A program made the translations under genes and the position numbers. Source: Octopus sinensis (taxonomy: Eukaryota). Taken from it: DNA of 64,000 nucleotides. This document shows positions 2,191 through 61,406 of the stretch, piece after piece; the first letter of the stretch is position 1, and each line of letters begins with the position of its first letter. Under the pieces are notes generated by a model. It made no database searches, had not been told where the DNA came from, and was given only the letters and a program-made list of their open reading frames with translations. The DNA is taken from NCBI RefSeq assembly GCF_006345805.1, contig NW_021833742.1:1-64000 (forward strand), read 5' to 3'.

Positions 2191-2728
2191 GTAACTTACA
2201 TTATAAATAATCGATTATTTCCTTGGTTAATACACTCCAAATTAAAAGCAGAAACCTAGATTTAAAACTTATGTGCATAAGTAGCATTTCTTTGTTAAAA
2301 ATTGATAAATGATTAAAATAATAATTACGCAGAAAATAAACTATTCAGCATTTCGGATCGTGCACAAAAATTCGTGTTCTTTATAATAAAATAAAACTCG
2401 CATGATTATTCCTTAACTATCATATCTCCAGAATGTGGGATTTATCATTTCCTTAGAGAATTTTCACATTTTATTAAATTAGTGGCCATCATTCTCGTAA
2501 TTTAATTGCAATCATGTTGTATCAATATGAAATATAATCATTGGCCAATAAGCACACACAAAAATAAAAAACCAGCACGTTATTTAATTTTATTTGTATA
2601 AAATAATGAACTTTATTTATTACAATAAAATAATTAACAAAAAAATTTATAAATTTATACATTTTGAACCACCTCTTATGTCTATACAATAAACTGAAAA
2701 AAATTTTATATTAAAAAATACAAACAAT

Positions 2729-4280
2729 TATTGTTAAATTGGACATCTCTAATGCATTTAACACCATTCGCCGCGACTCTATATTGGAGAACTGTCTTGA
2801 ATTTTGTCCCGAAATATACAACTATGTACTCAGCTCATACGCGAAACCATCCACCCTCGTCCATGGCCCTTACCATATTTCCTCGTCCTCTGGGGTTCAA
2901 CAAGGAGACCCATTGGGTCCTGTTCTCTTTTGCCTTGGAATTAATCACATTGTTAAGAGCTGCTCAACCCCGCTAAATGTTTGGTACCTTGATGACTGCA
3001 CCCTCAGAGGTCATCCCGAAACTATCTTCAAGACGCTCGTTGACCTAATTCCGAGACTTGAATGCGTTGGTCTTATACTGAACACTTCAAAAAGTGAAAT
3101 CATTAATTTTGGGTTCCGTGGTGATGAATTCGAGGTTATTGTTTCCTTTTTCAGTGAGATAATTCCCGGAGCGTCCATCACGCCTAGTATCAGTGTGGAG
3201 ATATTAGGCTGCCCATTGACAGATGGTAGAATCAAGGACGCTCTTGAAACTAAGGAAATGCTACTGGAAAAGACTTTTGTTCGTCTTAATTTGTTGGACC
3301 CACATACAGCCTTCTTCCTGCTCAAAAATGCCCTTGGCATCCAAAAACTAAATCAAGTGCTACGAGGGTCACCCTGCTTCTCAGAAAATGATCAACTTCA
3401 TTCTATTAATGTCCTTTTCCGGAAAACAACCGAACGCATCATAAACATCAAATTCGACGATCAAGGCTGGAAACAAGCTTCCCTTCCTGTCTCCTTTGGA
3501 GGTCTTGACATCCGAAATCATATCGATGTGTCCCGCCCCGCATTCCTGTCTTCACTGTACAGCAGTCAAACTCTGGTTCGGAAGATTCTCTATCTCCTCC
3601 CCGAATCTTCAATACCTAAGATGACTACCTACTTTGACAGTTGGAGCGCAAACGAATCGAAGCTGCCGTCGGACTTCTCCTCACAGAAGAGTTATGACAA
3701 GATTGTGTGCGAAGGTCGGTTCGAGAGTCTCCTAAAGACATCGAATCAACACCATAGAGCATGCTTGCTTGCCTGGAGGTCCACGGGGAGTGGAGAATGG
3801 TTGGAAGCCTTCCCGATCGGAAGCTTGGGGACTCTCTTGGATTCTGACAGACTGCGAGTTGGTATCTGTCTACGTATCGGTCTCAAAGTTTGTGAACCAC
3901 ACAAATGCCGCTGTGGTGCATCGATTGATCAATTTGGACTTCACCCTCTTTCTTGTCGAAAAAGCGCTGGTAGATTCCCGAGGCATTCAGCTCTCAACGA
4001 CGTTATAAGAAGAGCTCTCGATTCAATCAGATTCCCATCAGTGCTGGAACCACCTGGATTAGACCGAGGAGATGGAAAACGCCCAGACGGGATGACTATC
4101 TTTCTGTTTTTGGAGGGAAAGCCTCTCGTATGGGATTCAACATGTTCCGACTCCTTGTCCAAGACAAACATGTTGGAAAGTGCCTGCAATGCAGGCACAG
4201 CTGCGAATAAAGCAGAAGACATCAAAAAGAAATATGATGGGCTCACCGATCGTTGCGTTTTCCGGCCGGTTGCTGTCGAA
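2729..4280 (+). mobile_element. 5'- and 3'-truncated CRE-like non-LTR retrotransposon (RT, CCHC, PD-D endonuclease)
   Basis: ORF 2739-4448: LDISNAFN, GVQQGDPLGP, WYLDD, CRCG..HPLSC..RH, RPDG..WDST. Starts within the RT core and breaks off at PVAVE, where an integrase fragment is fused in frame. Confidence 0.88.
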
Positions 4281-4490
4281 AAATATTCGATCAAGCATGT
4301 GCGTGGTAGGGCACGAGCGCCCTGGATACAAGGGCAAGTAGAGAGGTTGCCTGATGGTTTTAATTTTTTAAGGTTCAACCAAAGCATAAAACGTTGGATA
4401 TCTTCAGCAAGTGCCTCTCGTGGATATAATCAAAGACATTGTTTGTGATTACAATAACACAATACATTCCACAATAGGAAAAGTCCCACT
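4278..4490 (+). pseudogene. Ginger-like DDE integrase fragment (copy 1) with a 27-nt intron
   Basis: EKYSIKHVRGRARAPWIQGQVER/FNQSIKRW; GT-AG intron 4346-4372 splits the Arg codon of VER; paralogous to 6720-6860. Confidence 0.8.
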
Positions 4491-4828
4491 GCATTTCTAA
4501 AAATGGCTCAAAGTTGCGTTTTTTTTGTATCGAAGACACTGAACTTAAGTTAAAATTCATTGAAGTAGTGTATTTGTTTATTTAAATTAGGCTCAACACA
4601 ATCTTAATTACTTTGGACGTGATAAATTTTACAGTTTATTGACACTCACCATTTATAGTGCCAGACGTACTGATGTGGCATCTGTGGTATCTAAATGTGT
4701 TTATTGTCAGGTAAATTACCAATTTTATTAATTCTAGTCGAAACGATTGCTTGCGACTAAACCAGCAATAACGCCTATTATTGCTTCTTCCCCAAGAGAA
4801 CGATACATTGTACACCTTTTTGGTATCA

Positions 4829-5021
4829 AATATCCGAACTGAGATGTCAAACGTCATTATTGTGGTTTCTAATATCCGAACTGAGATGTCAAACGTCATT
4901 ATTGTGTTTTCTAATATTCGAACTGAGATGTCAAACGTCATTACTGTGGTTTCTAATATCCGAACTGAGATGTCAAATGTCATTATTGTGTTTTCTAATA
5001 TTCGAACTGAGATGTCAAATA
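4829..5021 (+). repeat. 42-bp tandem array (about 4.5 units) in the left arm of the Tc1-like element
   Basis: Unit AATAT(C/T)CGAACTGAGATGTCAAACGTCATTATTGTG(G/T)TTTCT starts at 4829, 4871, 4913, 4955 and 4997; two variants alternate, giving an 84-bp higher-order period. Confidence 0.95.
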
Positions 5022-5057
5022 TGTTAATGTCAAAATTACGTATCTAAAAAAATATAA

Positions 5058-6221
5058 ATGGATTTTTGTTCGTTCGAAATGAATACTTTTGTTAAAACTA
5101 TGAATACTTCTTCTCGTGTTAGTGAAACATATAATAAAACAAATTTGGAAGCCAAAATGAGAATTATATCTGCTTATGAAAATGATGATGCAGATTGGCA
5201 TATTGTGGCGGAATCGAATGGAGTTAAGCGAAATACAGCTTATAAATGGATACGAAATGCTTCACAACCTAATAAAAAACGCGGAGGATTCAGATGGTCA
5301 AAAATCACAGACAATGAAATATCGAGAATGATAAACTATGTTGAGGAAAATCCTGTCATCACTTTAAGCGAAATTTGTGCGAGACTACTTAATGAAACTG
5401 GAATTTCTATCCATTATTCGACAGCTGCTAAATATTTACATGGAAAATTATTTACAGTTAAAAAAGTATTTTTATATTGGTAAAGGCAAGGTTATAACTG
5501 AAACCAATTTAATGAATTCAGAAGCAAACAAGATGAAAAGGAAAGAATATGTCGAAAAAATAATAAATAGAAAAAGTCGAGACAAAAATATAATTTATAT
5601 GGACGAAACTAATGTAAACTTATTTTTAAGAAAAACTCAAGTATAATTTATTAATGTTGATTTTAGAAGGGGCGCTCGTTAAAAGGGAAAAGATGCATTT
5701 TAAAGACTGCAGCAAACAAGGGACAAAATATTCACATAATTGGAGCCATTAATGAGAACAAATTAATATATTGGGAACGAAGACGCGGACATTTTAAAAA
5801 AGAGGATTGCCAGCAATGGTTCAGAAATATGATCAGAACTACAAATGAAAAATATTCAGAAATTTGTATTGTGATAGACAACGCACCGGTACATTCACAG
5901 TTAGAGAAAATGATTGGAGAAGAATTTCGAGATATTGAAATTATAAGATTGGGACCTTACAGTGCACCATTAAATCTAATAGAGGAATGCTGGAGCGTGC
6001 TTAAGAGTAAACTAAAAAGAAAAATGGCGACAACTGATTTTGTAAGTGCAGAAAATGGACTCACCCTAAAAGAAACCAGGCTACGAATTTTAGAAAATTG
6101 CATAGACACTTGTATTTCTGCAATAACACCAAGAATTTGCTCACGAACATGCAATCATGTTCAGAAACATTTTCCAAGTATTATCGAGATGAACGATTTA
6201 ACTCCCGATGACAATATTTAG
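5058..6221 (+). CDS. DD34E transposase, 3 exons (5058-5465, 5491-5640, 5667/5670-6221), about 370 aa
   Basis: Two phase-0 GT-AG introns (25 nt; 26 or 29 nt) join the three ORF pieces with no stop. HTH N-terminus, YMDETN, VIDNAPVH, LGPYSAPLNLIEE with 34 residues between D and E; AATAAA about 20 nt after the stop. Confidence 0.88.
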
Positions 6222-6289
6222 CAACTTAACATTGATTTCATCAATAAATATCATTTTTTCACTATTGTGCAGAAAATATAGGAACGGAC

Positions 6290-6462
6290 ATTTGACATCA
6301 CAGTTCGTATATTAGAAAACACAATCATGACGTTTGACATCTCAGTTCGGATATTAGAAACCACAATAATGACATTTGACATCTCGGTTCGGATATTAGA
6401 AAACACAATAATGACGTTTAACATCTCAGTTCGGATATTTGACATCCTAGTTCGGATATTCG
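6290..6462 (-). repeat. Inverted 42-bp tandem array (about 3.5 units) in the right arm of the Tc1-like element
   Basis: Reverse complement of the 4829-5021 unit, plus a shortened unit next to the terminus. Confidence 0.93.
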
Positions 6463-7433
6463 ATACCAAAAAGGTGTAAATCTTATCGATTTAAGACGCT
6501 ATTCGACCCGAAATGAAAATTATTCCTGGGTAATTTAGTAATCTAAATAATAGATTCTTGTTTTATTGGATTCCTTTTCAAAATTTGCTATGGTAGAATG
6601 TGCTTTTACCAAATCAGCTAAGGAGATCCGCGGAATCCTAGATGATATGTTTTGTATTATCAAGGGTCCACTTATTCTCCATACTGATAATGGCAACAAG
6701 TTTAGAAATTCTGAAATAAAACAACTTTGTGAAGAATACGAAATTGACCATGTTACCGGACGACCACGAGCCCCGTGGATACAAGGGCAAGTTGAAAGGT
6801 ATTTCTGTGTTTAATTTCAAAAGAATTAACCAATCTTTAAAACGATGGATCTTATCCACGAGTGCATCAAATGGAAATTTTGGATGCTATAAAACATGCG
6901 TGAAGAAAATAGCAAGAGACTACAATAAATCCGTCCGCGAAACTACAAAACAAAGGCCTTTTGACCTCTTGTTCGGAACTGATTTGGAGAAACCAAATAA
7001 AAAACTAACAAATTCTGAGGTCGTGAAAAAAAGGAAAAAAGCCCTTGAAAATATTGTAAAATCGAGAGAAAAAATGAAAAGGCGGAGAAAATGGAAATAT
7101 GATGAAGTTGAAAGTGGCGATAAAATTTTAATACGCCATGATGGGGATGCAAACCCGGGTTATAGAAAATACCCATTATACGACGAGATATCTGCACAAA
7201 AATATATTGTGAAAAATAGGGATCGAGAACTCGTAACGATAATTAATGAAGAGGATGAAAAAGATCAAAGGATATATATTAGCAGAGTAAAAAAACTTGG
7301 TTCTTTTCTATTTCATGAATCACGAAAATAAGCACTAATTTAACTGCAAATATTCATGGGGTTTGTTCTGTGTTTTTGCTCGTATCATATTTACTTAATT
7401 GTGAAATAATTGTGCCATTGTTACAAATTCGAC

Positions 7434-7879: not shown

Positions 7880-10800
7880 AATAAAAATTAATTATGTAAA
7901 TTCTATCTTAAATTATTTAAGAATCCAGATCGTCAGTGATTTCTCTTCTTCGCTTAGAAGAAGAGTTTGCAACAAAATTCTCATCATTTTCCATTTCTGC
8001 GTCAAAGTAATTGTTCAACTGAGTGTCCTCACGACATGCCAGCTCCGCAAGTTGATTGGCGGCAGAGGCGTACTCCTCGTTGTCTACCTTCATCCCATGT
8101 CTGTGTTCAATAAGCATACTCTCTAGAGTCCTCTTCAGCACAACCGACTGGATGTATGTCCTCGTTCCTTCTTCAATGGATAACTTGTCCATATGACTTT
8201 TAAAGAACTTTGAGACAACTCCATCCCATGTCAAGACAATTGGAATAATCTTCACTTTTGCTTCATAGAGAACTGACAGTTCGTTTGCAAGCAGGTCATA
8301 TTTGTGAAATTTCTCCACTTCAACTTGCTTTAAACGGTCTTGCGAGGTAACTCCCACTTCGATTAAATGAATTTCTCTTTTCCTCTTGTCATAAACGAAG
8401 ATATCAGGTTTATTGAATTGAACCTTTGTTTCAGTCATAATTGAAGTGTCAACTCTGATTTCGACATTTTGGGTCGACATTGTTGACACGACTGAATGTC
8501 CTTTCAATTTCCTGCTTCGTTTTATTCCATACATTCGACACAAGTGGAGATGAATACACTTTACCACTTCGTTGTGTCTTCGGAGATAATCACTGTTTAG
8601 CATCCTACCACACCGCGTGGCTAGATGGTCAACAGTCTGCCTGCTTTTTTTGCAGTGGACGCATAGTGATCCCGTGTATGCAAAGAACAAATTCCTATCT
8701 TGCAAAAGACAGTACAATGCTTCGCTTCGTGGACCATTGTTCCCTTTCGATAGCCATTGCGAAGAAGTAGATATGTCGACATCTGATTCCTCCATACATT
8801 TGAACATCACCGAGTGTAGTGATTTACTGTTAATTCGGTTAAGCAAGAGTTTCCTTTGTGCGTCCTTCAGTAACTCAATGGTCAGATTTTCCCTGCCGAC
8901 AGCTGCATATTTGGAGACAAGAAATTCTGCGATTGTGGCTAAGTGCCATTTTTTTCCTTTTATTACTCGCAGAATACCCGACCTCCGCAGACAGGTAGTC
9001 GACTGTTTTTCCAAACTTTTAAGAAACTGGAAGAGCATTAATTCGCTTTTGAAAGAAATTGAGGCAAGTCCTCTTCCAAGGGTCTTGCGGTCCAAATACA
9101 ACCTCTCCTTATTTGCAGGCTGGAGGTGTAACTTGAGAGTCGTAAGTAATCGGCGTATTTGTTGGTCAATCTCATCAAATTCGTAAGGTTCGATATTGAT
9201 TAGCCCAATATAATAATTATATAGGGATAATGCATATTCATTGATTCCACGAAACAAATTTACAGCATTCAGGTTTGTTTTTGACAACATAGTTATCCTC
9301 TTCTTGACATTCTCCAATATGGAGTCCATAACTTTATTCTTGAGAACATTACTTCCGCCATCTTCAAGTACACCCAAGTAGCGATATCCGTTGATTCCAT
9401 CGACAGTCTCACAGCATGATAAAGATTCCACATTAGATGCTGATTTTTCGGAATTCATCTCTAGGCCGACACTTTCAAAAAATCCATTAACAGCCTCCAT
9501 CATTTTGACTAACACATCTTCTTTGAGGGCAACTATTTTCAGATCGTCAATAAAGAAGAAATGATTGGTGGAGTATGTCAACATATTGGGATCTTCCCGA
9601 CTAATTTCGAGTTTGGGAAACATGGAGTTAAGCATCCTGCTTAGGGGATCCATCGCCATAACGAATAGCAGCGGGGACAATGAATCTCCTTGGAGTATTC
9701 CCCGGCTTAACTTTACTTTCCCAATTCTTTTCCCATCGATATGTAAGTTTACTGTCCACTTCTTGACTATGTTCTTTACAAAGCTGACAATCCAATGTGG
9801 TATTCCAGAGCAATCCAATACGTGGAACAAGAACTCGTGATCAACTGAGTCAAATGCCTTCTTCACATCGACCCAAGCAGAATAGAGGCCATTTCCATAC
9901 TCCTTATTTAAGCATTGGTTAATGAGGGCTTGCTCTTTGGCGCCTTGACATTGCTTCCTCGTTCCAAGCTGATTATCTGAGATTAAGCCAAATGCCTCGA
10001 TGAAATCGGCCAGTTTGGCATTAACACATTTGGTGACAAGTTTATACAAAGTTGGCATACACGTTATAGGGCGTAAGTCCTTCGGGGTCTCACACTCACT
10101 TTTTTTAGGGATCAAGTAAGTTACGCCAGTGTAAAACCAGCTATCAGGCGTGTACTCTCCATTAATTATTCGGACTATCTCTTTACACAGAAACCCATGC
10201 AAAGAATCCATCTTCTTTAAGAAAAAGTTATACGTTCCGTCGCATCCGCATGCCTTCCAGTCAGGTGCATATTTGAGCATATCCATAATAAAATCACTTG
10301 TGAATTGAGGTCGCATGGTTTCACCGCCAGTACACCTCACACCCACAAAATCATAAACTACGGGCCCCATATTTTTCTTGCTCCAGACATCTTCCCAAAA
10401 TGATAAGCACTCACCATCACCAAACCCATACAGGGTGGCTTCGTTGCTCGAAGATAAGTTTCGATAAAATCTTCTGCGGTTTAATTCAAAACACGCATTG
10501 TCTTTCCGGAAATTTTTCCTCGAGGAATGGATAGATATCTGTTTCTTTTTGATTCTAATTAGATCATTCAATAGAGTCTCAATTCTGGTTAGCTCCCCCT
10601 TCTTAGACTTCTTATATCCGTAGCGGCAGAGAACATCCATTGCCTTTTGCTTTTCTGCCTGAGGCAAGGTTTGTTTGGAGAAGGAACGAACTGTGTCAAT
10701 TTCATCTGCTAATTTAGAGATTTTTTTCCGTGTTTTCCAACCATGTGCTCTGTGGTCTGGCTCTCGTAGTTAAGGCCAAATAAGCACACTGTGCAGCATA

Positions 10801-15446: not shown

Positions 15447-18400
15447 TTTATTAAGAAAGAAACTAATTAACTAAGTAATTTTACTAACTAAGTCCAGAGC
15501 CTTCGAAGTGAGCAGAAGGCGGCACTCCACGCACCTCCTCCCCTTCTTCCTCCTCTTCTCTGGCACTGTAGACCTTGAGAAGGTGCAGTCCAGCGCCTCT
15601 TGCTGACTAAACGTCAGGAAAGGGCTGGATCGGCGAGCATCAAACGAGACACTCTCCAGAGTCCTCTTAAGAACAGTTGACTGTATATAAGCCTGTAGAG
15701 ACTTATCTACATCCAACTGTCTTAAGTACCGCTTGTGGTATTTGGTGACCAGTCCATCCCATGTCATCACCACGGGATGACATGGACTTTGCACTGGTGC
15801 ATCAGTCCTAGCTCGTTTGCAAGGAGGTCATACTTCCTCCTTTTCTCCACTTCCACTATCTGCAAACGGTCTAGGCACGTGATGCCCACCTCCACGATAA
15901 CAATCTCCCCGGTGACCTTATCGTGGACCACAATGTCGGGTCTGTTGTGCTGGACAACAATCGAGGTGCGTATGGGGGTATCCACCTTAATGCACACCCG
16001 CGAGTTCTCACACACCGATTGAACTCGATGGGTTCGCAACTTTCTGGACCGCCTCAAGCCGTACTTATTGCAGAGCAAAAGATGGAGGGACCTCACCACC
16101 TCGTTATGCCTCCATGTGTAATCATGGTAAAGCATACTCCCGCACTTCGTGGCTAAATGGTCAACGGTCATTGCCTTACTCTTACAGTGGTTACACTGTT
16201 TCCGTTGACCATTAAAAAAGTTTCTATCCTGCAAATATGAGAACAACCCTTCTGATCGGGGAGAGTTATTCCCATATTTCAGCCACGTAGATGACGACGA
16301 TACGTCAATGTGCGGGTTGTCCAGGCTGCTAAAGAGAGTCTTGTGAAGGACTTTTAAGTTGATCTTTTTAATTAAAGACTCCTTTTGAAGTTTGATCAAC
16401 TCCTTCACATTAACTTGGGTAGCACCTAGACCATACTTAGCCGACACATAGCCTTTTATGGTCCCTAGGTGTGTACCACGCGCTTTTTCAGCAGCAAGGA
16501 TGGCAGCCTTCCTTTGGGATACACTCGACCCACTCCACAAGGTGTCGTGCATCTTAGTAAGAATTCGCTCACTTAAGTGTACGATGTTACTCAGTCCACG
16601 TCCTAGCTGCCCGCGAGACAAGTACAATCTCTCCTTATTGCTTGCCAACACGTGGACATGATTCTCTCGGAGTACTCTTCGGACAATAAGGTCCATTTCA
16701 TCGTACTCACTCGGCTCGAATTCGATCAGGCCAACGTAGTAGTTTAGCAATGAGATGGCATACTCGTTCAAGGCATGAAATAAGTTCCGTGCATTAAGCC
16801 GAGTCTTACATAACATTGCCGCCTACTACGCACACCCTCCACTACACACTTTCTCGTTTCGGGTGTGATTAATGAGGCTGGACTCTCAACCACACCAAGA
16901 TACTTATATCCTTGGTGTTCCTCCAAGACTTTGACTAGGTCACCACACACAGGGGTGTTAGTCGCCGACTTGTTGTAGTTGAGCTCCAACCCCACGGCCT
17001 TCATGAAACCTTTCAGGACTTTACCCATTGAGTGAAGGATCTCTGAAGACCGAGCGAACAGCTTAATGTCGTCTATGAACATGAGATGGTTGGTGCTAAA
17101 ACACCCTCCTTCATGTTCGATCGACATTTGTTCGAATTGGGCAGTGAGGACTCTACTCAGCGGTTCTAGGCAGAGGACGAACAGCAGCGGAGACATGCTG
17201 TCGCCCTGTAATATGCCCCTCTCTAGTTTCACCTCGCCTATATCGCATTTGTTGTAATTTAGATGGACGTTCCACCTGTCCATCACAGTTGCAACAAATT
17301 TGATAAACCACATTGGCAACTTAAGCCTTCGCAGACACTCAACGAGGTAGGCATGATCAACCGAGTCATATGCCTTCTTCACATCCACCCACATTGACAC
17401 TAGTGAGTTTCCGTGGGCTCTCGCGAGGCATTTGTTGATCAGTGCCTGCTCCTTAGCTCCCTGGCAATCCCGCCGAGTACCTAACTGGTTCTCGGACAGA
17501 ATCCCATTCACCTCCACGAAATTTCTGACCTCAGTAGCCACCACCTTAGTCATCAACTTGTACAGGTTGGGCATACAGGTTATCGGACGATAATCTGTCG
17601 GAGCGGAAGGGTTATCTACTTTAGGGATCAAATAAGTGACCCCAGTACATAACCACTCTGGAATCGAGCCAGGGTCTAGTGTAAACTGTTCGATTGCTCG
17701 ACACATGCAATCATGGATAGGTTTGCAATTTTTAATAAAGAAATTATACACTTTATCGACCCCAGGTGTCTTCCAGTCAGAGAGACGGGTTACTGCTTCA
17801 TCGAACTTCTTGCGGATGTCAGGGACACCACAAGACTCGGTCATCAAGGGAGCATCGGGTCCACAAAACGGAAACGACACACCCTTGCGAGGACGTGCTT
17901 TCCACATACTCCCCCATGTGTCAAGCATTTCGGCCTTTTGCTGGGTACCCTCCTTCGTCTCTCCGTGCAACCGACGATAGAACGACCTGCGATTAAATTC
18001 AAACAGGTTGTTCTCCCGCCTGCGCTGACACCGAGACTCATGAGTTGAGAGCTTCTTCTGATAAACGAGAATCAGCTCCTCCCTCTCTGCCCGGACACGC
18101 CTCAACTCGTTGAGGTCCCATTTGGCAGCTCGTTCCCGACGAAGTAAAGTACGCACCAAGGGGGGAGTCTTGCCCTTGACCCCATTGCTCACATTCAAAA
18201 TGTGCCCAGTCAGCGCTTCCAGCTCGGCTTTCCTTGCGGCTACTTTTGCGGCAATGTTTTCTCTCCATCTACTCTTTGGGGCAGGCCTCTGAGTGATTTC
18301 ATCATAGGTTGTCTGTGCCGAGTACAAATAAAGAGAAATCTCGTCCATTGTCTCCGGAGGCTCACGCACGATCGCGTAAGCTATGGCACGATTGATGCAA

Positions 18401-18875
18401 CCCATCACGTCACTTCTGAGTTGCCACCGAGGTATCTTTCGGGTCACTCTGCGGTCCGCAAGGGGGACAACACGATTCGCAGAGATATGCCTACTAAATA
18501 TCTCCTTAACCTGCAAGAGTAGCGATAACTCACTACTCTGGTGCTCGTGTTGTTCAGAACACGGGGGGCATCCTGACGGCGTAACCGCAGCGGCAGTCCT
18601 CCCCCGCGAGCCAGGAGGAGGGGTCTTGGCCAGCTTCTTCAGTGCATCTAACGATAGGTTCGAGCTAAAGCGTCGATTGAAACACTGAAGCAGGGTAGGC
18701 CACCCATTTCTGGGCATCCTGGAAGCTCTTGCCAACACGGGAAAGGGCGGATTTGCGGATTTAACCCAGTCCTCCCGGGTCGTGCACTCGATCCTTCAGC
18801 AATGGCAAAGACGATGTTCTTGGCCATCGGAGCGTCTGTCTCTCCGATGCGGTTGTCCATCCTGCTCTAGGTATA
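15447..18875 (-). mobile_element. Full-length R4/Dong-like non-LTR retrotransposon B
   Basis: ORFs 18860-18648, 18738-16768, 16816-15767 and 15794-15471 join into one RT-CCHC-RLE protein with three single-base corrections; 3' end TTAATAAA defined by the copy at 45204-45312; (TAA)n run at the 5' junction. Confidence 0.92.
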
Positions 18876-19242: not shown

Positions 19243-20277
19243 GGCGATATCGTGTTTTAGCGTCTTAAAATCATAAGGGACCAATTTGATTAGAATCGCA
19301 AATAAATTATATTATATTATTTTTTAAAAATTATTATAATTATCAAAATAATTATTATCTGCAACGCTTTACAGTATTTTTGAATGATGTATTGTGGAAG
19401 GCCGTCTGCATCGACTATTATTGTTAATAAACTCAACCAACATATGATTTGTTACTATTTGAATTGAATCACCGAGATTTTGTGGAAATAACAATGACCA
19501 CGCAAGATACGGTCAATTGGTTGGCTCAATATCAGCTAATCAAAAATTCGATGAAATGCGAAAACTGCAGCACGGATTGCCGTCTTCTTTCAGACAAATC
19601 CCGACTCGACAAATTAAAGTGGAAATGTAAAACATGCAATTTCTCAAAATCGATTCGAGATGGCAGCTTTTTCTCACATAGTCATCTTGAATTGAAGCAA
19701 ATTTTGGACTATATCTATTTTTGGGCACTCAACTCAGAAACGATTATCTGCAGCAAAGAATCTCGATCAGACTTTAAAAAAACATCAATTGATTGGGGAA
19801 ACTTTTTACGTGATGTATGCGTAAAGTGGGTCGAGGACCATCCTTGTTCTCTCAGTGGAATTAATTCAGAAACTATGTTGCCAATTGTCGTAGAAGTGGA
19901 TGAAACAAAATATTTTCATCGAAAATACGCAAGAGGTACCTGGCACGAAGGGCATTGGGTTGTTGGTGGAAAAGAGAGGGGCAACCCTAGGAATATTTTT
20001 CTGGTCGAAGTTCCTGATCGGAGTCGAGACACGTTAATAACTATTAATTCTCAGTATCTTTTGTCTTAATAATTCGAATTTTTCACTGTTTTTGTTTTAC
20101 TAAGTTGCTGTAAAAATGTAGTTTTAAAAAAATTTTAATTTAGGGTTGCCACAGTATTGTACATATAAATTTAATTATAATAATTTTTAAAAAATAATAT
20201 AATAATATTAATTTATTTGCGATTTCTAATCAAAATTGGTCCCTTATGATTTTAAGACGCTAAAACACGATATCGCC
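19243..20277 (+). mobile_element. Merlin (IS1016/ISXO2-like) DNA transposon, internally deleted
   Basis: Long TIRs starting GGCGATATCGTGTTTTAGCGTCTTAAAATCATAAGGGACCAA; 8-bp TSD CAGACTTT (19235-19242, 20278-20285); ORF 19449-20069 with C4 zinc ribbon, SIRDGSFF, VEVDET..RKY.RG, WVVGG, VPDRSRDTL; C-terminal catalytic part missing. Confidence 0.92.
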
Positions 20278-27750: not shown

Positions 27751-29426
27751 AGGATGGGCATAAAGTCGCGCACCAAGGTAAATATCAAAATTTCAAATAT
27801 GCTAAAATTTTAGAATCACCCATCTTAATTTGCTGTCTTTAATAATTCATTCTGATAGACTTTAACAATTCTCTCACTTATTCCAATCATTCATTCTATT
27901 CTAATCAGAAACAGAATGAGTCATCCATTGATGTCCGTAGGCGTGACAGTCGGCTCTAGCAGATGAATCATTTACGACGGTAACATTGTTGAGCCCATAA
28001 TGTCTTTAAAATTGAAAACAAATAGAAATTATTTTACTTTGTGGAAAAATTTGTGCCACTAATGGATCTGTTGCGAAATCCTTTAACTCAAGCCAGAAAA
28101 GTGTGGACATAGGCTATACGACAGTCGACCGATGACTCACAAAAATTTGTGATGCCTGTCTGAAATCAATGGTGAACAACAACTACTAAATCGTGTGTAC
28201 GATAACATTCTTTATCGAATTGACTTAGGTATGACTTCCTCAGATGAACATGTAGAAGATCTGTAGGCCATCTGTCTTTTCTTATGTTTTTTTTAAATAA
28301 AAACAAATTGCTAGTGTATGTCGTTTAAAATAAAAATAAATTGCTAACTTAGTACAGTGACTCCTCTGAAATTGGCCACCACTGAAATTGGCCACCTCTG
28401 AAATTGACCACACTTATAAAATTATCTTAAGAAAAATTCGAATTTCCATTGAAAGTGGCCAATTCTCAAATTGACTATAAATTTTAAAATATATTTTATG
28501 TAATTTGCAAATTAATAAAATTTCAGTTATTTTATGTCTTCGAACAATTCTCGTGGTAATTATACTCGTCTCACTTTTTATCAAAAAATACAGATTTTAA
28601 CTTATAAAAATCAAAATGAAGATGTTTCATGTCAGTATTTGGCTGATAGATTTTCCCATTCGTTTAAAAAGAAGATTTCCAGCAAAACAATTAATAATAT
28701 TATTTTGAAAAAAGATTTTTTTCTCAGTTCCTACAAAAAGTTAACTCTAAAGGATACTGTAATTTTCGTAAAAATGGCTTGGGAAGATGTGTCTGAAAAA
28801 ACGATGGCAAATTGTTTCGGAATTTTAAGCAACCCATTCAAAAAGAATCATGTAGTTGAAGTTCAAAATATTGCAGTAGAAAAAACTGAGATTTTTGATC
28901 CCTTAGAAGTCGAAGAATTTCTTAATTTTGAATATTCTGAAAATGATACATTTCAAGACGTTGAGGATATTGAAAATATAAAATATGAAGTAGAAGCTGA
29001 AGTAGAATCCAATGAAGTAGAATCCAATGATTCAATTGACAAAGAAGACATTGTGGTTAAGTTAACTAAAATTGAAAACGACCTCCCAAAAAACATTGAG
29101 AACGAACATGAAGTTCAATTGATTACATCCATAAGGCGCTATAAGGAAAATGTCATTAAAACTCAAAAAAAGCAGATGGGCATCCAATTCTACTTTAAGA
29201 ACATTAATAATGCTTAATTACTTAAAATTTTCTGGATAAAGGTTGTTCTTATTCAAAATTTAATTTACACAGATTGATTTTATTTCTCAAATTGGCCATT
29301 TCTCGAATTGACCACAAAAACACGTGGAACCAAAAATGGCCAATTTCAGAGGAGTCACTGTATATGGTTTTTGTAAATGTGAAAAATTGTGGGTTTTAAT
29401 TTAGTGCGAGACTTTATGCGCATTCT
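27751..29426. mobile_element. Possible older Tc1/mariner-like TIR element hosting the pogo insertion
   Basis: Imperfect inverted repeat ATGGGCATAAAGTCGCGCACCAA (about 27754) vs TTAGTGCGAGACTTTATGCGCAT (29401-29423), 20/23 match; no readable transposase. Confidence 0.45.
28355..29360 (+). mobile_element. pogo/Tigger-family transposon with an in-frame internal deletion (ORF 28534-29217)
   Basis: Perfect 24-bp TIR CAGTGACTCCTCTGAAATTGGCCA; TA TSD; repeated GAAATTGGCCAC motifs; ORF joins an N-terminal HTH (RLTFYQKIQIL) to the Tigger C-terminus (TLKDTVIFVKMAWEDVSEKTMANCF); no DDE domain. Confidence 0.9.
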
Positions 29427-30067: not shown

Positions 30068-34565
<4,498 letters not shown>

Positions 34566-36106
34566 CCTAAAAACAGAACATTTAGGTAAGAAATAGATGG
34601 TGCATAAAACCGAAAATTGATAGTATGATTGATATAATACTATTTAATAGTGTTTATGTTCTATATTTAAGGTAAATAATTCACACTAAAAACTTTTTTA
34701 ATAAAAATAGTATATATTTAATTATAAGAAAAGCACAACATGAAAATAATGCCAATGCTTAATATAATAATTAACTTGTGTATGATATTTACACATATAA
34801 ATATTTTTTATCAACATTTAATGTAATAATATAACTAAATGTATTTAGCTGTCCAATATTGTATTTTTTGTCATCCGATTAATTAAATTCAATTAAAGAA
34901 AGTTTAGCCAAGTATCAAAATTGGAGCATTTTTAAAGAGGAAAAGGTCATTTGTTATATTTTTGGCCTATTTAGCCATCAGGAATGATCCATATTGTAAG
35001 TTTTGTAACAATCGTTAAATTTTAGTTATTTATGGCCAGTTTAAATGGACTTTGATAATAAAAATATTCTGAACGTCACTAGAAATGCCACTCGAACATA
35101 ATTATTTACTTTGACAATACTTAATGTTTATTCTTAATGAGAATTTTAAAAAGGAAATGCATCTATTTATAAACTCGGTCAAGTTTTTGTCTCATTTTCT
35201 CTAATTATTAGGACCATTATCTCTATTTATTGTCTAAGTGGCGATAGCACGGCAGCAGAGATTGTTTTTAATAGGAACTTGTCGACAAATAAATGAATTT
35301 AACCATTGACTAAGTTAAGACTACATTAAAACACTGAATATTACCATTATAATCAAGCTTAATCAACTAATAAAAACGTCGTTAATAATTAAAATTAATC
35401 AACAAATTTTTGTTGCCTTCAAATGTGATATGTGATCGAAATAACTCCATCATTTCTCTCCACTCTCTACGTTTATACCTTTCCGTGCGATAAACAGTCC
35501 AAAAACAAATAAATAGACATAAAGAGATTTTATGGAGATTAACCTTTTTCTACTTCTTTCAATAATATTTCGAAATGGTTACTTAAGACAGTTGGGTATG
35601 AGTCTTTACGTGATGACTGGAGAGAATCTTTTTTGATGCTTCTTGAACAAGTTAGTTAGCGAGAGGCTCCGGATTGCACTTTTTTGGAGGTTTATAGAGC
35701 CAGAAAAAAAGAAAGGATGGAAGTGTCTGAAGTTCTAAGCTTTGGTCACTTTAGACCAGGGGTGTCAAACTCATTTCGCTTTGAGGGCCACATTATGTAA
35801 CAATTTCGCTTCGAGGGCCGCATTTATAATAATTTCTCATTAAGGGAAGATTAATTCTGATATTTATTATGATGAATAACCAAAATAAGAGAAACTAAAT
35901 TATTCAATTATCGCCCTTTAATTTTGGTGAGAGCTGCTTCCAGAGCAGGGGTGTCAAACTCATTTCGCTTTGAGGGCCACATTTTGTAACAATTTCGCTT
36001 CGAGGGCCACATTTATAATAATTTCTCATTAAGGGAAGATTAATTCTGATATTTATTATGATGAATAACCAAAATAAGAGAAACTAAATTATTCAATTAT
36101 CGCCCT

Positions 36107-37579
36107 TTAATTTTGGTGAGAGCTGCTTCCAGAGGATTGACATCTTTTTTTAGATACAATTTTTGATATGTCAGGCTGAGCTATTCGTGTAGTTCCGACT
36201 AAATGTTCATCAGTTAGTCTTGTTCTTTGAGCAGTTTTTGTCATTTTCATAAATGAAAAAAGCTGTTCACACACATATGTCAAACCAAACATAGCAATGA
36301 TTTTTGTTGCAAACTTTTTAAAGTTTTTAAACTTTCCAGGAAGATATGAAAAGAAAGCAGATATTCCAACCTCCAAATATTTAGCATTAAGTATAGAATC
36401 TGATTGGATTTCCAATAGTTCCATTTGTAAACTTTCATCTGCATTGGAAACATTAAAAGAGAATGGTGATGCGAATAATGAAAATTGGTGTTCAAAAAAC
36501 GAAAAATCATTAAATCTTTCTTGAAATTCCTTTAACAACGATTGTCTTTCATACTGAGAAAAATTCATTACATTATGTGCATCAACAGTACTCCTGAGCT
36601 CTTTGCACGTAGGAAAATGAGATAAATCTTCATTTAATAGCTGAAACTTCCATAATTTTATTTTCGAAATAAAACACTTGATATGATCTGACAACTGAGT
36701 TATGAGTTTGTCTTTGCCCTGCAATTCTAAATTAAGGTCGTTCATATGTGTGGTAATATCCACTGCAAATGCCAAATCTTTGATCCAAGATTGACTTTTC
36801 ATTTCGTCTGTGTTTTGCCCTTTCATCTCCATAAATAAAATTATTTCCGATCTCAACAAATAAAATCTTTTAACAACTTTGTGAAGTGATAACAAGCGGA
36901 CTGGAGTATAAAAAGGAATGTCGTGGAACTGATTATTAATATCTGTCAGCAGTTTACTAAACTGCCGGTGGTTGAGGGGATGACCTCTGATATAGTTTAC
37001 TGTTTTCGTGACCAAACTAATGGTATTTTCCATTTTTAATATTTTTGAACACAAATATTGCTGATGAATAATGCAATGAAAATGAGCAAATGATGACCCG
37101 GGATTTACCTTTTCTATTTCAGCTCGCAATTTAGCGGCAACGCCAGCATGTCGTTCAGCCATATTCGGAGCACCATCAGTGCATAAACATACAAGCTTCA
37201 TCAAATCAAACCCATATTCAAAGAGAATTTGTAGAAGTTTTATAAAGATATCCTTACTTGTAGTAATATCGAGCATTGGTACCAGTTCGAGAAATTCTTC
37301 ATAAATATTAAAATCTGATTCACACGCTCTAAAAAAGATTGCTAATTGTGCAATTCCAACGACGTCGACTGTTTCATCGATTGCAATTGAAAAATATTCA
37401 AATTTTAACAAATCAGACTTTAATTGGTATTTCAAATTCAATGCCATTTCATTAATGTGTTCGGCAACAGTATTTCTTGTTAATATCTTTAAACAAGTGG
37501 GCGTCGTCTGGACAAATAATATTCGCTGTTTTAACAAGGCATTGCATGATGAAATCACCATCACAATATGATTTTCCAT
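36107..37579 (-). CDS. hAT transposase, intronless over the catalytic region; N-terminus frameshifted or deleted
   Basis: FSIAIDETVD, CTDGAPNM, HCIIHQQ, TYVCEQLFS, RTRLTDEHL; the upstream piece 37452-37742 is in another frame. Confidence 0.85.
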   Translation of the reverse strand: MENHIVMVISSCNALLKQRILFVQTTPTCLKILTRNTVAEHINEMALNLKYQLKSDLLKFEYFSIAIDETVDVVGIAQLAIFFRACESDFNIYEEFLELVPMLDITTSKDIFIKLLQILFEYGFDLMKLVCLCTDGAPNMAERHAGVAAKLRAEIEKVNPGSSFAHFHCIIHQQYLCSKILKMENTISLVTKTVNYIRGHPLNHRQFSKLLTDINNQFHDIPFYTPVRLLSLHKVVKRFYLLRSEIILFMEMKGQNTDEMKSQSWIKDLAFAVDITTHMNDLNLELQGKDKLITQLSDHIKCFISKIKLWKFQLLNEDLSHFPTCKELRSTVDAHNVMNFSQYERQSLLKEFQERFNDFSFFEHQFSLFASPFSFNVSNADESLQMELLEIQSDSILNAKYLEVGISAFFSYLPGKFKNFKKFATKIIAMFGLTYVCEQLFSFMKMTKTAQRTRLTDEHLVGTTRIAQPDISKIVSKKRCQSSGSSSHQN

Positions 37580-50625: not shown

Positions 50626-52648
50626 TCAATAAGTCCACAAGGTAAGATCACCATTGAGGTCTGTAGAAATAAGTTGATCACTATTAGGAGACCATGCGAC
50701 AGATGATATCCCATCGCTATGAATATAATGCGTCTAATCACAACCTCTTGAGAGGCCCTGTATGTTCAAACTGAGTGACTAATTTTGCTGTATCTGCTTC
50801 CCAAATAAAAACAGAACCATTATCTGCTCCAGCGGCAACGTAACGGTTGCAAGGACTAAAAAATTTTAAATAAAATTAATATTTCCTGACCTGATACTTG
50901 GTTTTGAAAAAGGGAAGTCTACAAAATACTTATCAGAACTAAAAAACGGTTAAATCAAAAAAAACGCAAATGTTTGGACAATCTCCCATTTGCGCATATC
51001 AATTTTAACCAAATTCCTCCCTTGTAAGGAGCAAATTACATGATTATCTAAAATTAGCAATATAATGCAACCAGAGCACAAAGCAGCCCCAGTGATTCTA
51101 GTATCCAATTTAGTGTGTGTCATTTGTTTGTCATAACCCTCTCTTGTATCCCATTCTCTCAAGGTTTTATCAAAATGAGAGGTCATGACAACTTCAGTTG
51201 GAAAAGGGAGAATATCAACTACAGAAGAACCAGAATGAATGCTACAAATGTCTAATCAAGTTAACAAGTTATCAAATACTTGTTCTTTTTTCGACATCAA
51301 ATAGTTTGAGTATACGGCAACCAGAAATCATTTTTTTGGTCATTGAATTCGATTTTATAAACGCAACAGCCATAACTTTTGAATAATGATGATTCGTGAA
51401 CTGAATCGTAAATAATTAAATTCAAAACCAAAGATTTGTTGGTTAAAAGGCTCCACGCAGGTACACTCAGGTCATTAGAAGATGCGGCAAGATAATTATT
51501 CTCAGCATCAACAGCCACACAATTAGCACTGAGACTGCAGATACTATAGTGCCTATTTTCAACTAAAATATCTAAAGGATAACAAATTTTTCCTATATTA
51601 CTGTTGGAAACTTTGAAACTATTTACAGATCCATTAGCATAGCTGGCAAATACCATTTTGTTAGAGAAAACTGCATGATTTGCAGCACATTTATGCAATT
51701 TCTACAATGTTGTTATTGAAAAATAAAAAATTACAATTTTAGAGCTATTTTTCATTTTATCTGGAATTTTTGGTTTATTTCTAATAATCAGACATAATAA
51801 TCTCACTCAAAATCACACATTTCTTGTTTTGTGTTATCGGAAATTCTAATATTTATTATAAAACGATAAACGAAAATGATGTGGCTGATTTTTTTCTGAT
51901 TGCTTCGTCGGCTTTAATATCTTGTATCATAATCTGATAATTAGCAATATCCTGAGCTTTTCTGTCGAGACATTCTTGCAATTTGAATTTATCCGACTCT
52001 AATTCCTACAAAAATTCAATTAAAATTTTGACGGAATAAATTTGTTGATTTCTTATCAGCTGGTTTGAAAGTGTTTCTGTTTCAGTTTTTAGTTCTTCGT
52101 TGAGGCACGTAATTTCTCCCAATCTAAAGATAAAACATTATTCGCAATACTCTTCACAAATGCGAGTCAACTGTTCCTCTTGTTTCTCAAAAACAATTTT
52201 ATTCTCCGCAACGGTTATTTCTTTTTCTTTGTTTAAAGCTTCTATTTTATTATGTAGTTCAATTATTTGTTTAGAAAACTATATCTATAATTAGTTTATC
52301 TAACCACAATGTTTTCTTGTTTCAATTCTGATTCACTTTTCTGAAGTGCTTGATAATCATCTTTATTTACACTTTATCAATATTTACTACAAATTTACTT
52401 TTTTGATATAAAATTTTCTAAATCTTCCACTTTTAATGTAAGTTGTGAGTTGATAATTTGTAGGTTTTCTATATTAATTCTATTTTCGGCAATAATACTG
52501 ATCGCATGATTATCTGCAAAAGTAATAAATACATTTTCATACAATTTTCTACAACAGTCGAATATGTTTCATTTACAGATTTTCTTTGAGCAATTAAACG
52601 AGAGAATAATAATCTTGCATTTTCTGCATCACATTCAAAGTTTATCAT
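50626..52648 (-). CDS. ATG16L: Autophagy protein ATG16-like (N-terminal helix, coiled coil, WD40 propeller; multi-exon)
   Basis: N-terminus ARLLFSRLIAQRKSVNETYSTVVENYN, long coiled coil, WD repeats YLAASSND..W, TSHFDKTLREWD, SPCNRYVAAGADNGSVFIW, ISSVAWSP; architecture and motifs match ATG16L1. Confidence 0.8.
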
Positions 52649-53380: not shown

Positions 53381-53452
53381 TAGCGGAACGAGGTTTCGAT
53401 CCTCGGACCTCTGGGTTATGGGCCCAGCGCGCTCCCACTGCGCCATTCCGCT
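53381..53452 (-). tRNA. Initiator tRNA-Met (CAT)
   Basis: AGCGGAATGGCGCAGTGGGAGCGCGCTGGGCCCATAACCCAGAGGTCCGAGGATCGAAACCTCGTTCCGCTA: A1:U72 pair, GGG/CCC anticodon stem, ATCG in place of TTCG in the T-loop; T-run Pol III terminator follows. Confidence 0.97.
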
Positions 53453-55936: not shown

Positions 55937-56938
55937 ATGAAAAAAACCGACTTTCCAAAATCGAAAATAAAAGATTATTATGAAATGAATTGTAACGAAA
56001 ATATAATTCCCTATATGCGAAAACAACCCTATGATCTCTCAAGGGAGCATTATTTTATTCCTGATCTTCATGTTAAATATGATTATGACCATATGCACTC
56101 CTATCAACCTTACATATCTTCATGTTCATTTGTCGATAATACTTTCCAACAAAATCCATACCAGTATATTGAACCACCAGGTTGTCCAAGTTTAACCCAA
56201 ACATATTTAAACACAAATTATGATGAAAATATAAATTATCAAAATTGTACAAATCCTTTGTTTTCAAATCAAATTATGGTGAATTCAACTCATTATGTTT
56301 GTAAATGGCTAATTGAAAATGATATAAATATTTATTCCAAAATTATTTGTGAAAAAATGTTTATATCACTTAATGATTTTGTTCATCATATTACCGCTGA
56401 TCATGTAGGTAATTCAGATAGAAAAGAACATTGTTGTATGTGGCTTGATTGTACACGAACATGCAAACCATTTAAAGCAAAATACAAGCTTGTTAACCAC
56501 ATACGAGTTCATACTGGCGAAAAACCATTTTGTTGTAACTGCTGTGGAAAGTTTTTTGCTCGGTCTGAAAATTTAAAAATCCATCAGCGAACTCATACTG
56601 GTGAGCTGTTTTTCAATATCAATTTAGGAGAAAAGCCTTTTATTTGTACATTTGATGGGTGTGGTCGACGTTTTGCCAACAGTTCGGACAGAAAAAAACA
56701 TTCCCATGTTCATATAACAAACAGACCATATTTCTGCAAGTATAAAAGATGCAAGAAAAGTTATACTCACCCATGTTCTCTTCGAAAGCATTTGCGTATG
56801 CACGAAGAAACTGAAATAACCGAATATCCCACAAACAAGATAAACATGAATATAAAAGATACAAATTTAAATTTTTATGATTTAAATTCTAACGGATCAC
56901 AAAATGAATCGGAAAATTCTTGTTTAACAATTAATTAA
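55937..56938 (+). CDS. Zic: Zic/odd-paired family C2H2 zinc-finger transcription factor; one 27-nt intron (56601-56627)
   Basis: [78 protein letters not shown]; GT-AG intron in the HTG/EKPF linker between ZF3 and ZF4. Confidence 0.97.
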
Positions 56939-59596: not shown

Positions 59597-61406
59597 ATGA
59601 CCAGTCCAACAAATAATAATCAGCATAGAGTACAATAATCTTCTAAACCTATAGATGCCTTCTAATTCTCGTTTTCATCCATATAACAATTTTCCATTGG
59701 GTGAATCGTATTGCGATGAAGATGACGTAAATCAGACATTTCCTACTCTTGTAAACTATTATTTTATTATTCACAAAGACTTTGGCCAATATGAAATACT
59801 CTAATTTCAAAATTTCTGACCATTCGACAGATCATAAGCGTAGTATTGAAGAAGCGGTAAATTATAGATTTATTTATTTCCTAGACTAAATGGCTTATCG
59901 ATAATTTTGAATATTCTGAGGGATTTTCCATAGCTCGTAGAACAATTTACCTTATGTATCAGAACGAATGCAAGATGCAGAAGAGGGAAAGTGCATTGGA
60001 TCAAGCAACTTTGGGAAAGATTTTGCGAAAAATTTTCTTTCCTAGTTCGATAAGGAAAATAGGCACGCAGTTACTTTTTTATGATTACTCACTAGGAAAA
60101 ATTCTAGATACCATTACTACGGAATTCGCCAAAAAATTGCTTCTGAAACAGTCGATATTAAAGAAATCGAGTTTTTATTTTTACCTAATTTCTAGATCAC
60201 CAGATCACAAAACTACTTTTGATTTTTCCAATTCTACGCAATTTCGTCAATTTCCTAATATACCAATCACGGTTCCATCATATTGCTCCCAGGATGCATT
60301 TCTTTTTGTAGAATTATATAAAAATAACTTAGCCGTTGTTTTGTTGTTTATTTGTATTTTAGAAATCCTATGAGTATTTTATTAATCGGCAGTTTCAAGC
60401 AGTCTTTGACACTTGGCGAGTTTTTTGGTTTGGAGAATTCTCGTTTGAAAATAAAAAGTTCGTTTCATTTATAATAAATAGATTGGGAAAAGTTGAGTTG
60501 AATTGTCTAATTAAACAGAACTCTATTCTTTCTTTTTTATTCCAAACTGATTGTATATTCTTTCAACATTTGCTTGATATGTGTGTTCCCGACGACTTTA
60601 CATCGGGCAACAATTTATTAATATTTTTAGTAGTGCCTGTTGATGAATTTGACAGTTTTATCATAAATGTCGAGGAAAAAAGCAAATCTATTGTAGAATG
60701 TCGGTCTAATTCCATTCTTACAGCCATTAAAGTAAAATGAAACTGTTTATTTACTAAATTAGTCTGGCGTTGCCTCCACTTTTGTACATTTTTATAAAAT
60801 TCGTTTATCGTTGCAAATTTTATCCAAAAACTTGAGTCAAATTAGAGAGAACGACAAAGGAAACGAAAGTATGATGAGAGAGATTACTAAGATAGACTTT
60901 TCCAATATTCGAGTAAATATTAACTTCGATTTTTAGAGTCAAATGAAATGGACGTGTAACTGCGAGGAAGATATGATTATCGCAATTGAATCCTCTTTTA
61001 TTACAGGAGTCAAGCATTTTCTAAATTTGAATGAGTGGAAAAATTGGGTTCTGGAAGTCATTGATAATTCTACTCACTGGTCTGAACCCATTGAAACCAA
61101 TTATCGTTCTTTGGTTTCGTATTGGTCAACATTCTTGTAAATTTATAGTTTAATCTGTATAGGAATCTGGTGATTCGAGAACTTTTTTTTATTCGCTCAT
61201 CTATTTTATGGAACTTTCATCTTTTTCAATATATGTGTCAAAATTATATGCACTACGTTTGCAGAACAAGGATTGGATATAATCTAAAAACAGCAGCTGC
61301 TGAAATGATTTCTAAGACTGTTAATCTTTCCAAACTAAGAGATATTGTGGAAAGTTATTCTGTCGAAAATAATCAGGGTTTATTGTATGATATTCCTTTT
61401 TCATAA
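59597..61406 (+). CDS. RFX: RFX-family winged-helix transcription factor (multi-exon, divergent)
   Basis: Spliced DBD TKWLIDNFEYSEGFSIARRTIYLMY..C..DQATLGKILRKIF..RKIGTQKNSRYHYYGIR; dimerisation-like IRELFFIRSSILWNFHLF..YMHY near the C-terminus; 25-28-nt introns in the 5' half. Confidence 0.88.

Follow-up and report, generated by a model that had tools for sequence, protein, structure and literature searches.

A full-length TA-flanked IS630/Tc1/mariner transposon with five-site inverted arms and a predicted host-spliced transposase in likely dicyemid DNA

The DNA examined here, called the window throughout, is a stretch of 64,000 nucleotides (positions 1 to 64,000, forward strand, of contig NW_021833742.1) from an assembly filed under Octopus sinensis (RefSeq GCF_006345805.1). 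At 4813-6476 it carries a DNA transposon of 1,664 bp with a TA dinucleotide on both sides. We consider this quite probably a full-length transposon of the IS630/Tc1/mariner (ITm) group in a likely dicyemid genome, with a DDE transposase of 369 amino acids (aa) made after splicing by the host and a paired-like N-terminus that is the putative binder of repeated cores in the element's ends. An earlier note, written from the sequence alone, had called it an apparently intact IS630/Tc1 element, and a TA-targeting ITm transposon with modular ends is indeed supported by the analyses described below.

The boundaries of the element were fixed independently of its own features, because it sits inside the rve-type integrase gene of another element and the integrase frame that enters the left TA resumes past the right TA, collinear across the site. 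The 5' part of this target gene includes what we take to be an H2C2 zinc-finger-like region. The features that define the ends are the following.

4591-4810, + strand: 5' part of the target gene, encoding the N-terminal region of the rve-type integrase/transposase
4811-4812, no strand: left TA target-site duplication, read from the sequence
4813-5020, + strand: left inverted arm, 208 bp, a 16-bp terminus and then five 23-bp cores
6290-6476, - strand: right inverted arm, 187 bp, with five 23-bp cores
6477-6478, no strand: right TA target-site duplication, read from the sequence
6479-7331, + strand: 3' part of the target gene, with the rve core (6554-6811 matches Pfam rve, E 1.8e-13)

The TA target-site duplication and the terminal inverted repeats of ITm elements are both present, as are repeated motifs inside long inverted ends of the inverted repeat-direct repeat (IR-DR) or Foldback type. 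The first 15 bp of the tips are the same at both ends, with a mismatch at position 16. Left-arm cores start at 4829, 4871, 4913, 4955 and 4997 (spacing 42, 42, 42 and 42 bp), and right-arm cores lie at 6438-6460, 6417-6439, 6375-6397, 6333-6355 and 6291-6313 (spacing 21, 42, 42 and 42 bp). Each arm has exactly five cores, the outermost of which lies 16 bp from the tip on both sides, and the right arm is without 21 bp in its outermost unit. Homology between the arms extends from the tip to the final base of the fifth, innermost core. Over this length the arms are 93.6% identical, with 12 of 187 aligned bases differing (9 transitions, 3 transversions) in addition to the 21-bp indel. The earlier description of intact inverted repeats and TA duplication was therefore correct for the duplication and the tips but not for perfect repeats along the whole arms.

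Tandem Repeats Finder recovered in both arms the 42-bp arrays described in the earlier note, at 4821-5019 on the left (42 bp x 4.7, 92% matches, score 342) and at 6287-6439 on the right (42 bp x 3.6, 90%, score 250), and the two arrays are inverted relative to each other. The 84-bp alternation reported for the left arm is real and depends there on two diagnostic positions, but it is not confined to that arm, as the right spacers alternate too. The 42-mer itself displays a weak internal 21-bp period (22/42 matches at a shift of 21; p ~0.009 across all shifts tested). The 23-bp core had no other match in the window on either strand when up to and including 4 mismatches were allowed. Two other roles for the arrays were considered and set aside. 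A structured-RNA or hairpin role is unlikely, as the left arm folds worse than 200 of 200 shuffles (z +3.4), and long stop-free frames across the arrays were dismissed because the 42-bp period produces them.

The transposase gene lies between the arms and is broken at two places, each of which is predicted to be a very short intron.

5058-5465, + strand: transposase exon 1, bipartite helix-turn-helix (HTH), paired-like DNA-binding domain
5466-5490, + strand: predicted intron 1, 25 nt, GT-AG, phase 0
5491-5640, + strand: exon 2, first catalytic Asp codon at 5602-5604
5641-5669, + strand: predicted intron 2, phase 0, 29 nt when the AAG acceptor is used, with an in-frame stop inside
5670-6221, + strand: exon 3, second Asp at 5877-5879, Glu at 5982-5984, Leu at 5976-5978, stop at 6219-6221

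In-frame candidate start ATGs of exon 1 are found at 5058, 5079, 5100 and 5157. A stop-free frame is given by 30 GT-AG intron pairs, and models were scored against a profile of 70 full-length relatives (326-410 aa) out of 188 proteins retrieved with exon 3. The pair 5466-5490 and 5641-5669 came first among 32 splice and frameshift models, at 459.9 bits. The second-ranked model (453.3 bits) keeps the first intron and ends the second at 5666, a 26-nt alternative with a TAG acceptor and one extra Lys. The spliced product is stop-free and has 369 aa with the 5669 acceptor or 370 aa with the 5666 acceptor. This agrees in detail with the earlier reading of three open reading frame (ORF) fragments joined through two phase-0 introns into a protein of about 370 aa, with a NAGNAG acceptor at 5666/5669.

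The junctions argue for the same pair. At intron 1 the spacer length is identical to that of 68 of the 70 relatives, and at intron 2 the 5669 acceptor leaves the 7-residue spacer that is likewise seen in 68, the other 2 being gapped. Only the two-intron reading yields junctions of family length. If intron 1 or intron 2 were left unspliced, translation would end at 141 or 187 aa, respectively. Both introns start with GTA. On this comparison of sequences, both are predicted to be removed by splicing. Several points weigh against this reading. Intron 1 has a competing out-of-frame AG at 5485, use of which leads to a stop at 139 aa. The proximal acceptor of a pair such as that of intron 2 is usually favoured, and with the proximal TAG the junction would exceed that of every aligned relative by one residue. 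Finally, a +1 frameshift model at the first site scores only 12 bits lower (447.5).

Two explanations of the breaks without splicing were weighed. Many bacterial IS630 elements use programmed ribosomal frameshifting, and the first break does come after a run of A between the parts encoding the DNA-binding domain and the catalytic domain, where a +1 shift opens the frame. However, that +1 reading would put 8 extra residues at a junction that lacks them in 68 of 70 relatives, with a lower score, and the -1 shift tested at the second break meets three stops. Both segments are moreover AT-rich, bounded by GT-AG and of host intron size, and we regard frameshifting as very improbable. Less credible again, to the point of being nearly negligible, is the idea that random insertions into a dead copy produced segments resembling introns by accident. 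The window is indeed rich in decayed mobile elements. Yet two independent events would be needed, both with GT...AG at the exact family junctions, and inside the element such ends occur at a frequency of 0.0006 in 25-nt windows and 0.0024 in 29-nt windows.

The size of these introns was compared with that in the presumed host, for which two genes elsewhere in the window were informative.

55937-56938, + strand: Zic gene, from protein comparison
30068-34565, - strand: CHD1-like chromatin remodeller gene (Chromo, SNF2, SANT-linker), with many introns of ~22-28 nt

The Zic protein is 86% identical to ZicB of Dicyema acuticephalum over its full length and 78% identical to ZicA, whereas other animals reach at most 60% over partial length, aside from one octopus-named record. 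That record, 'ZIC 4-like [Octopus sinensis]', is the top match (97%); it comes from a contig of 37.7 kb, has the intron read through and is probably dicyemid DNA inside the octopus assembly. Relative to ZicB, the Zic protein has an exact 9-residue insert that corresponds to a 27-nt GT-AG in-frame intron at 56601-56627. Its position appears to be that of the bilaterian A-intron, as known from earlier work on Dicyema (PMC2222250). In the same source, dicyemid introns average 26.2 nt (n = 16). Introns as tiny as these are described in animals only for myxobolid myxozoans and D. japonicum, with splice signals shrunk to GTa and AG (PMC13644364). In the CHD1-like gene, eight introns chosen by eye measured 22-28 nt. 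A homology-free splice search of this gene gave a median intron of 22 nt with several boundaries wrong, and it was counted as weak evidence because shuffled sequences gave 28-38 nt.

From the likeness of Zic and the host-size introns it follows that the window is very likely dicyemid DNA, where introns of 25-29 nt are normal. The transposon likely stems from a dicyemid, a tiny parasite of the cephalopod kidney. The mini-introns are of ordinary size for such a host and are not special to this element.

The gain of both introns probably followed the entry of the element into the dicyemid lineage, because each of its relatives is represented by one predicted protein on a short contig (in one case 364 aa on 1,193 nt). 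A point against this is that the relatives are known as predicted proteins only, and that their intron-free state would be deduced from those single proteins. If the introns were gained in dicyemids, the family would provide before and after versions of one gene for studying the origin and splicing of ultra-short introns. The recognition and splicing of such introns were left open in an earlier account of them (PMC13644364). A wider proposal is offered more tentatively, as a possibility at somewhat less than even chances. DNA transposons that invade dicyemids may gain ultra-short introns in their transposase genes, weak acceptors such as the NAGNAG and the competing AG may throttle transposase output, and phased five-site ends may belong to an unmatched ITm clade. 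If true, this would supply a datable gain of 25-29-nt introns in a mobile element, at two positions seemingly uninterrupted in relatives, with several more in the target integrase.

The spliced protein has the N-terminal HTH and DDE/D catalytic domain of ITm transposases, as had been noted. Exon 1 matched Pfam HTH_32 with E 1.3e-5, under the curated cut-off, and exon 3 matched DDE_3 with E 1.7e-19. The NCBIfam IS630 model was the top match for both exons tested, and the family profile aligned with Sleeping Beauty (SB100X, E 1.1e-7) and with Mos1 (E 6.9e-4). The predicted structure of 5100-5465 consists of two three-helix bundles (predicted local distance difference test score, pLDDT, 90). Its top structural neighbours are the paired domains of Pax6 and Pax5, followed at lower rank by the DNA-binding domains of Mos1, SETMAR and Tc3. 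The fold matches are weak, the best having E 0.01 and none E <= 0.001, which counts against a paired-like assignment.

Placement within the ITm group was assessed from identity, catalytic spacing and a tree. The best identity to known proteins is 54% in exon 3, 55% over 68% of exon 3 and 51.7% over the full length, and the close matches are unnamed proteins. The catalytic triad is complete and the D-to-E spacing of this copy is 34, as stated earlier. In 68 relatives both residues could be aligned, and of these 53 are DD35E, 6 DD33E, 3 DD34E and 6 other; in the closest set, 33 of 34 scored are DD35E. DD34E cannot therefore serve as the family label that had been proposed, nor as a sign of DD34E/Tc1. 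The spacing of the copy is best read as a one-residue deletion and not as an indication of Tc1 or Gambol membership. This shows that DD34E and DD35E labels can change by a single deletion.

A quick tree was made of 139 catalytic domains: that of the element, those of the 108 among 203 transposase-like proteins in which the DDE was complete, and 30 of 49 from bacteria. The element falls within a 40-row group with a Shimodaira-Hasegawa-like approximate likelihood ratio test (SH-aLRT) value of 94, on a long branch (0.62 against a median of 0.37). The 30 bacterial IS630 rows lie across a long branch of 1.05 (SH-aLRT 98), and the element does not group with bacterial IS630 proper. With a single query, no bacterial or archaeal relatives were present among 43 pattern matches. 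An alignment-based bacterial scan, which covered 3 of 64 parts and kept 80 loci, found bacterial IS630 sequences at 21-42% identity over partial segments. On these searches a bacterial or archaeal origin was rejected, as only distant IS630 turned up among the loci kept. As regards DD35E/Hiker, a DD35E triad is seen in most of the relatives and not in the copy. From these comparisons the clade appears to match no named ITm family tested. In one of the bacterial loci, an IS630-like sequence of Cardiobacterium sp. (L008:1304-1525), a 35-bp x 6.4 array lies just upstream of the matched catalytic region; any such tandem array was seen in 3 of the 80 loci.

The arrays are reasonably regarded as multiple, putative transposase-binding sites. 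Under the proposed mechanism, the host spliceosome would excise both host-sized introns to give the 369-aa transposase, and the paired-like N-terminal domain would bind the 23-bp cores, five in phase on either side. Only the outermost of them, at 16 bp from the tip, would set the catalytic domain at the end and position cleavage. Bari/Sleeping Beauty and Galileo serve as models for the four inner cores, which would recruit extra transposase and assist end pairing. With spacings of 42 bp (about four helical turns) and 21 bp (about two), the sites would lie on one face of the DNA. The arrays may have expanded by slippage or unequal exchange, including that of an 84-bp block. Insertion into TA sites would proceed by cut-and-paste, the established ITm pathway. 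Arms as regular as these would be a simple substrate for studying the role of inner-site number and helical phase in end pairing.

Alternatively, the arrays could be a neutral minisatellite that arose by slippage and was spread between the arms by fold-back conversion, with only the outermost core of importance. The cores are not clearly better conserved than the spacers (deviations at 8/230, 3.5%, against 7/133, 5.3%), which speaks for this alternative and against binding sites. The 21-bp internal periodicity and the 84-bp higher-order pattern are likewise typical of slippage. On the other hand, both arms begin and finish on a core and hold exactly five, the right arm despite its 21-bp spacing. 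In addition, Galileo and Bari1 provide cases in which the transposase binds repeats inside long terminal inverted repeats (PMC3688188, PMC4120734). We consider the minisatellite unlikely, at roughly one chance in four, and retain the arrays as candidate binding sites.

The earlier note suggested a young, possibly active element, and the corresponding alternative holds that this copy is fully active and autonomous and derives from a recent burst. Several features fit: the spliced gene is stop-free, the triad complete, the target-site duplication intact and the 15-bp tips perfect, and 56 of 60 family-conserved columns are kept. The long tree branch also fits a general acceleration of rates in dicyemids, and fast dicyemid evolution could account for part of the unusual residues. 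Against full activity stands first a Leu two residues upstream of the catalytic Glu, at a position occupied by Pro in 68 of 70 relatives. The same Pro is present in 124 of 135 motif matches of a larger set, and Sleeping Beauty and Mos1 also align Pro. From this conservation, the change is presumably harmful to the enzyme. Counting it, 4 of 60 conserved columns are changed, as against at most 3 in 35 of 36 close relatives, a comparison that is biased in that the consensus was made from those relatives. The one-residue deletion between D and E and the differences between the arms point the same way.

The copy count that had been suggested was made within the window, where blastn and tblastn found no second copy of the element. 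Protein comparison, for which the best identity was the 55% given above, found no protein nearly identical to exon 3 among the best 150 of 792 matches listed, among 38 matches from 237 longer candidates or among 20 matches from 51 candidates of similar length. Positive evidence for youth or activity is thus absent, and the gene is intact in its reading frame, though not at every conserved residue. On balance, it is more probable than not that the copy encodes an impaired enzyme, and full activity is doubtful. The ends of the copy could still be mobilisable by a sister copy.

Comparison with known systems indicates which parts of this arrangement have precedents. The IR-DR elements of the Tc1-like group (Bari1/Bari3, Sleeping Beauty, Minos, S and Paris) resemble it in having an HTH and DDE ITm transposase and repeated sites within ends of ~250 bp. 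In Bari1 all three repeats are bound by transposase (PMC4120734). IR-DR elements differ in that they have two or three direct repeats, rather than five contiguous, even and near-identical cores per arm, and in that their transposase is only distantly related; the two mini-introns also set the present element apart. The unnamed IS630-like, eukaryote-type DD35E transposases (P0151-P0188 and others) share 45-54% exon-3 identity in the best matches, the same motifs and junction lengths, and the tree group. Compared with them, the element is one residue shorter in the D-to-E interval, carries Leu in place of the conserved Pro and has predicted introns. Among the Atlas look-alikes of P0151 are clusters from Cnidaria, Oomycota, fungi and giant viruses, which are leads only. 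The catalytic motifs of Gambol and Hiker are presumably unlike those of the present clade. DD34E/Gambol and DD35E/Hiker are similar to it as IS630-like eukaryotic ITm elements with DD34E or DD35E spacing and with transposases of 371-372 aa (PMC13469147, supplement). The HvSm elements have short terminal inverted repeats of 15-56 bp (PMC7325037).

Galileo has long inverted ends with internal tandem repeats and bound secondary transposase sites (PMC3688188). Galileo differs from the present element in its P-superfamily THAP transposase and terminal inverted repeats of >1 kb, as against an ITm enzyme and arms of ~200 bp, and the resemblance to Galileo and Foldback is architectural only. TLEWI, a Tc1-like element of bivalves, also has an ITm transposase gene cut by spliceosomal introns (bioRxiv 10.1101/656579). 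TLEWI is DD36E, without terminal inverted repeats and domesticated-looking, whereas the present element keeps its ends and target-site duplication and has introns of 25-29 nt. According to the same source, ITm elements seldom contain introns.

Each ingredient is precedented: repeated end sites in ITm elements and Galileo, introns in a few DNA transposons, and introns below 30 nt in dicyemids. The combination seems undescribed in the literature searched. No description of a dicyemid DNA transposon was found in that literature, judged by titles and the opening lines of abstracts, which had subscription journals and Repbase outside its scope, and the portions used of the D. japonicum genome paper (PMC6736024) contain no word starting with 'transpos'.

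The target integrase gene has candidate introns of its own at 4711-4737 (27 nt), 6530-6553 (24 nt) and 6799-6823 (25 nt). Its left end was looked for in the window and not found, and a candidate right end lies at 7425 with TGT inwards. The gene resembles Ginger transposons (PMC2836005), of which Ginger1 has 1-4 introns and TGTNR ends (PMC2836005). A second integrase fragment at 4295-4500 (+) is like 6765-6800 (89% across 36 nt). Its candidate intron of 27 nt occupies the position of the 25-nt one at 6799 but differs from it in sequence.

Other mobile elements were also seen. A pogo-like element at 28353-29362 (DDE_1, weak match) has ends that match perfectly in inverted orientation over 26 nt, TA included. 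On the left it also has three subterminal tandem repeats of 16 bp, and it is thus another TA-flanked element with repeated end motifs. At 19243-20277, an element of ~1 kb with a perfect 45-nt inverted repeat and an AT-rich 43-nt extension carries a 212-aa ORF without a Pfam match, which we assume to be a truncated Merlin/ISXO2-type transposase. The transposase gene at 35753-36134 and 36107-37579 (-), presumably hAT-like, has a tandemly duplicated end region (189 bp, 98%) and internal 30-bp repeats. Reverse-transcriptase ORFs of the non-long-terminal-repeat type are located at 2715-4448 (+, 577 aa), 7917-10769 (-, 950 aa) and 15767-18795 (-, 675 and 351 aa). By eye they have C-terminal restriction-like endonuclease motifs, and introns are not evident in them, as expected for retroelements. 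An Rfam scan of the window gave one transfer RNA only, at 53381-53452, far from the element. The remaining genes are a WD40-like gene in pieces at 50950-51701 and an RFX DNA-binding-domain gene at 59885-60740.

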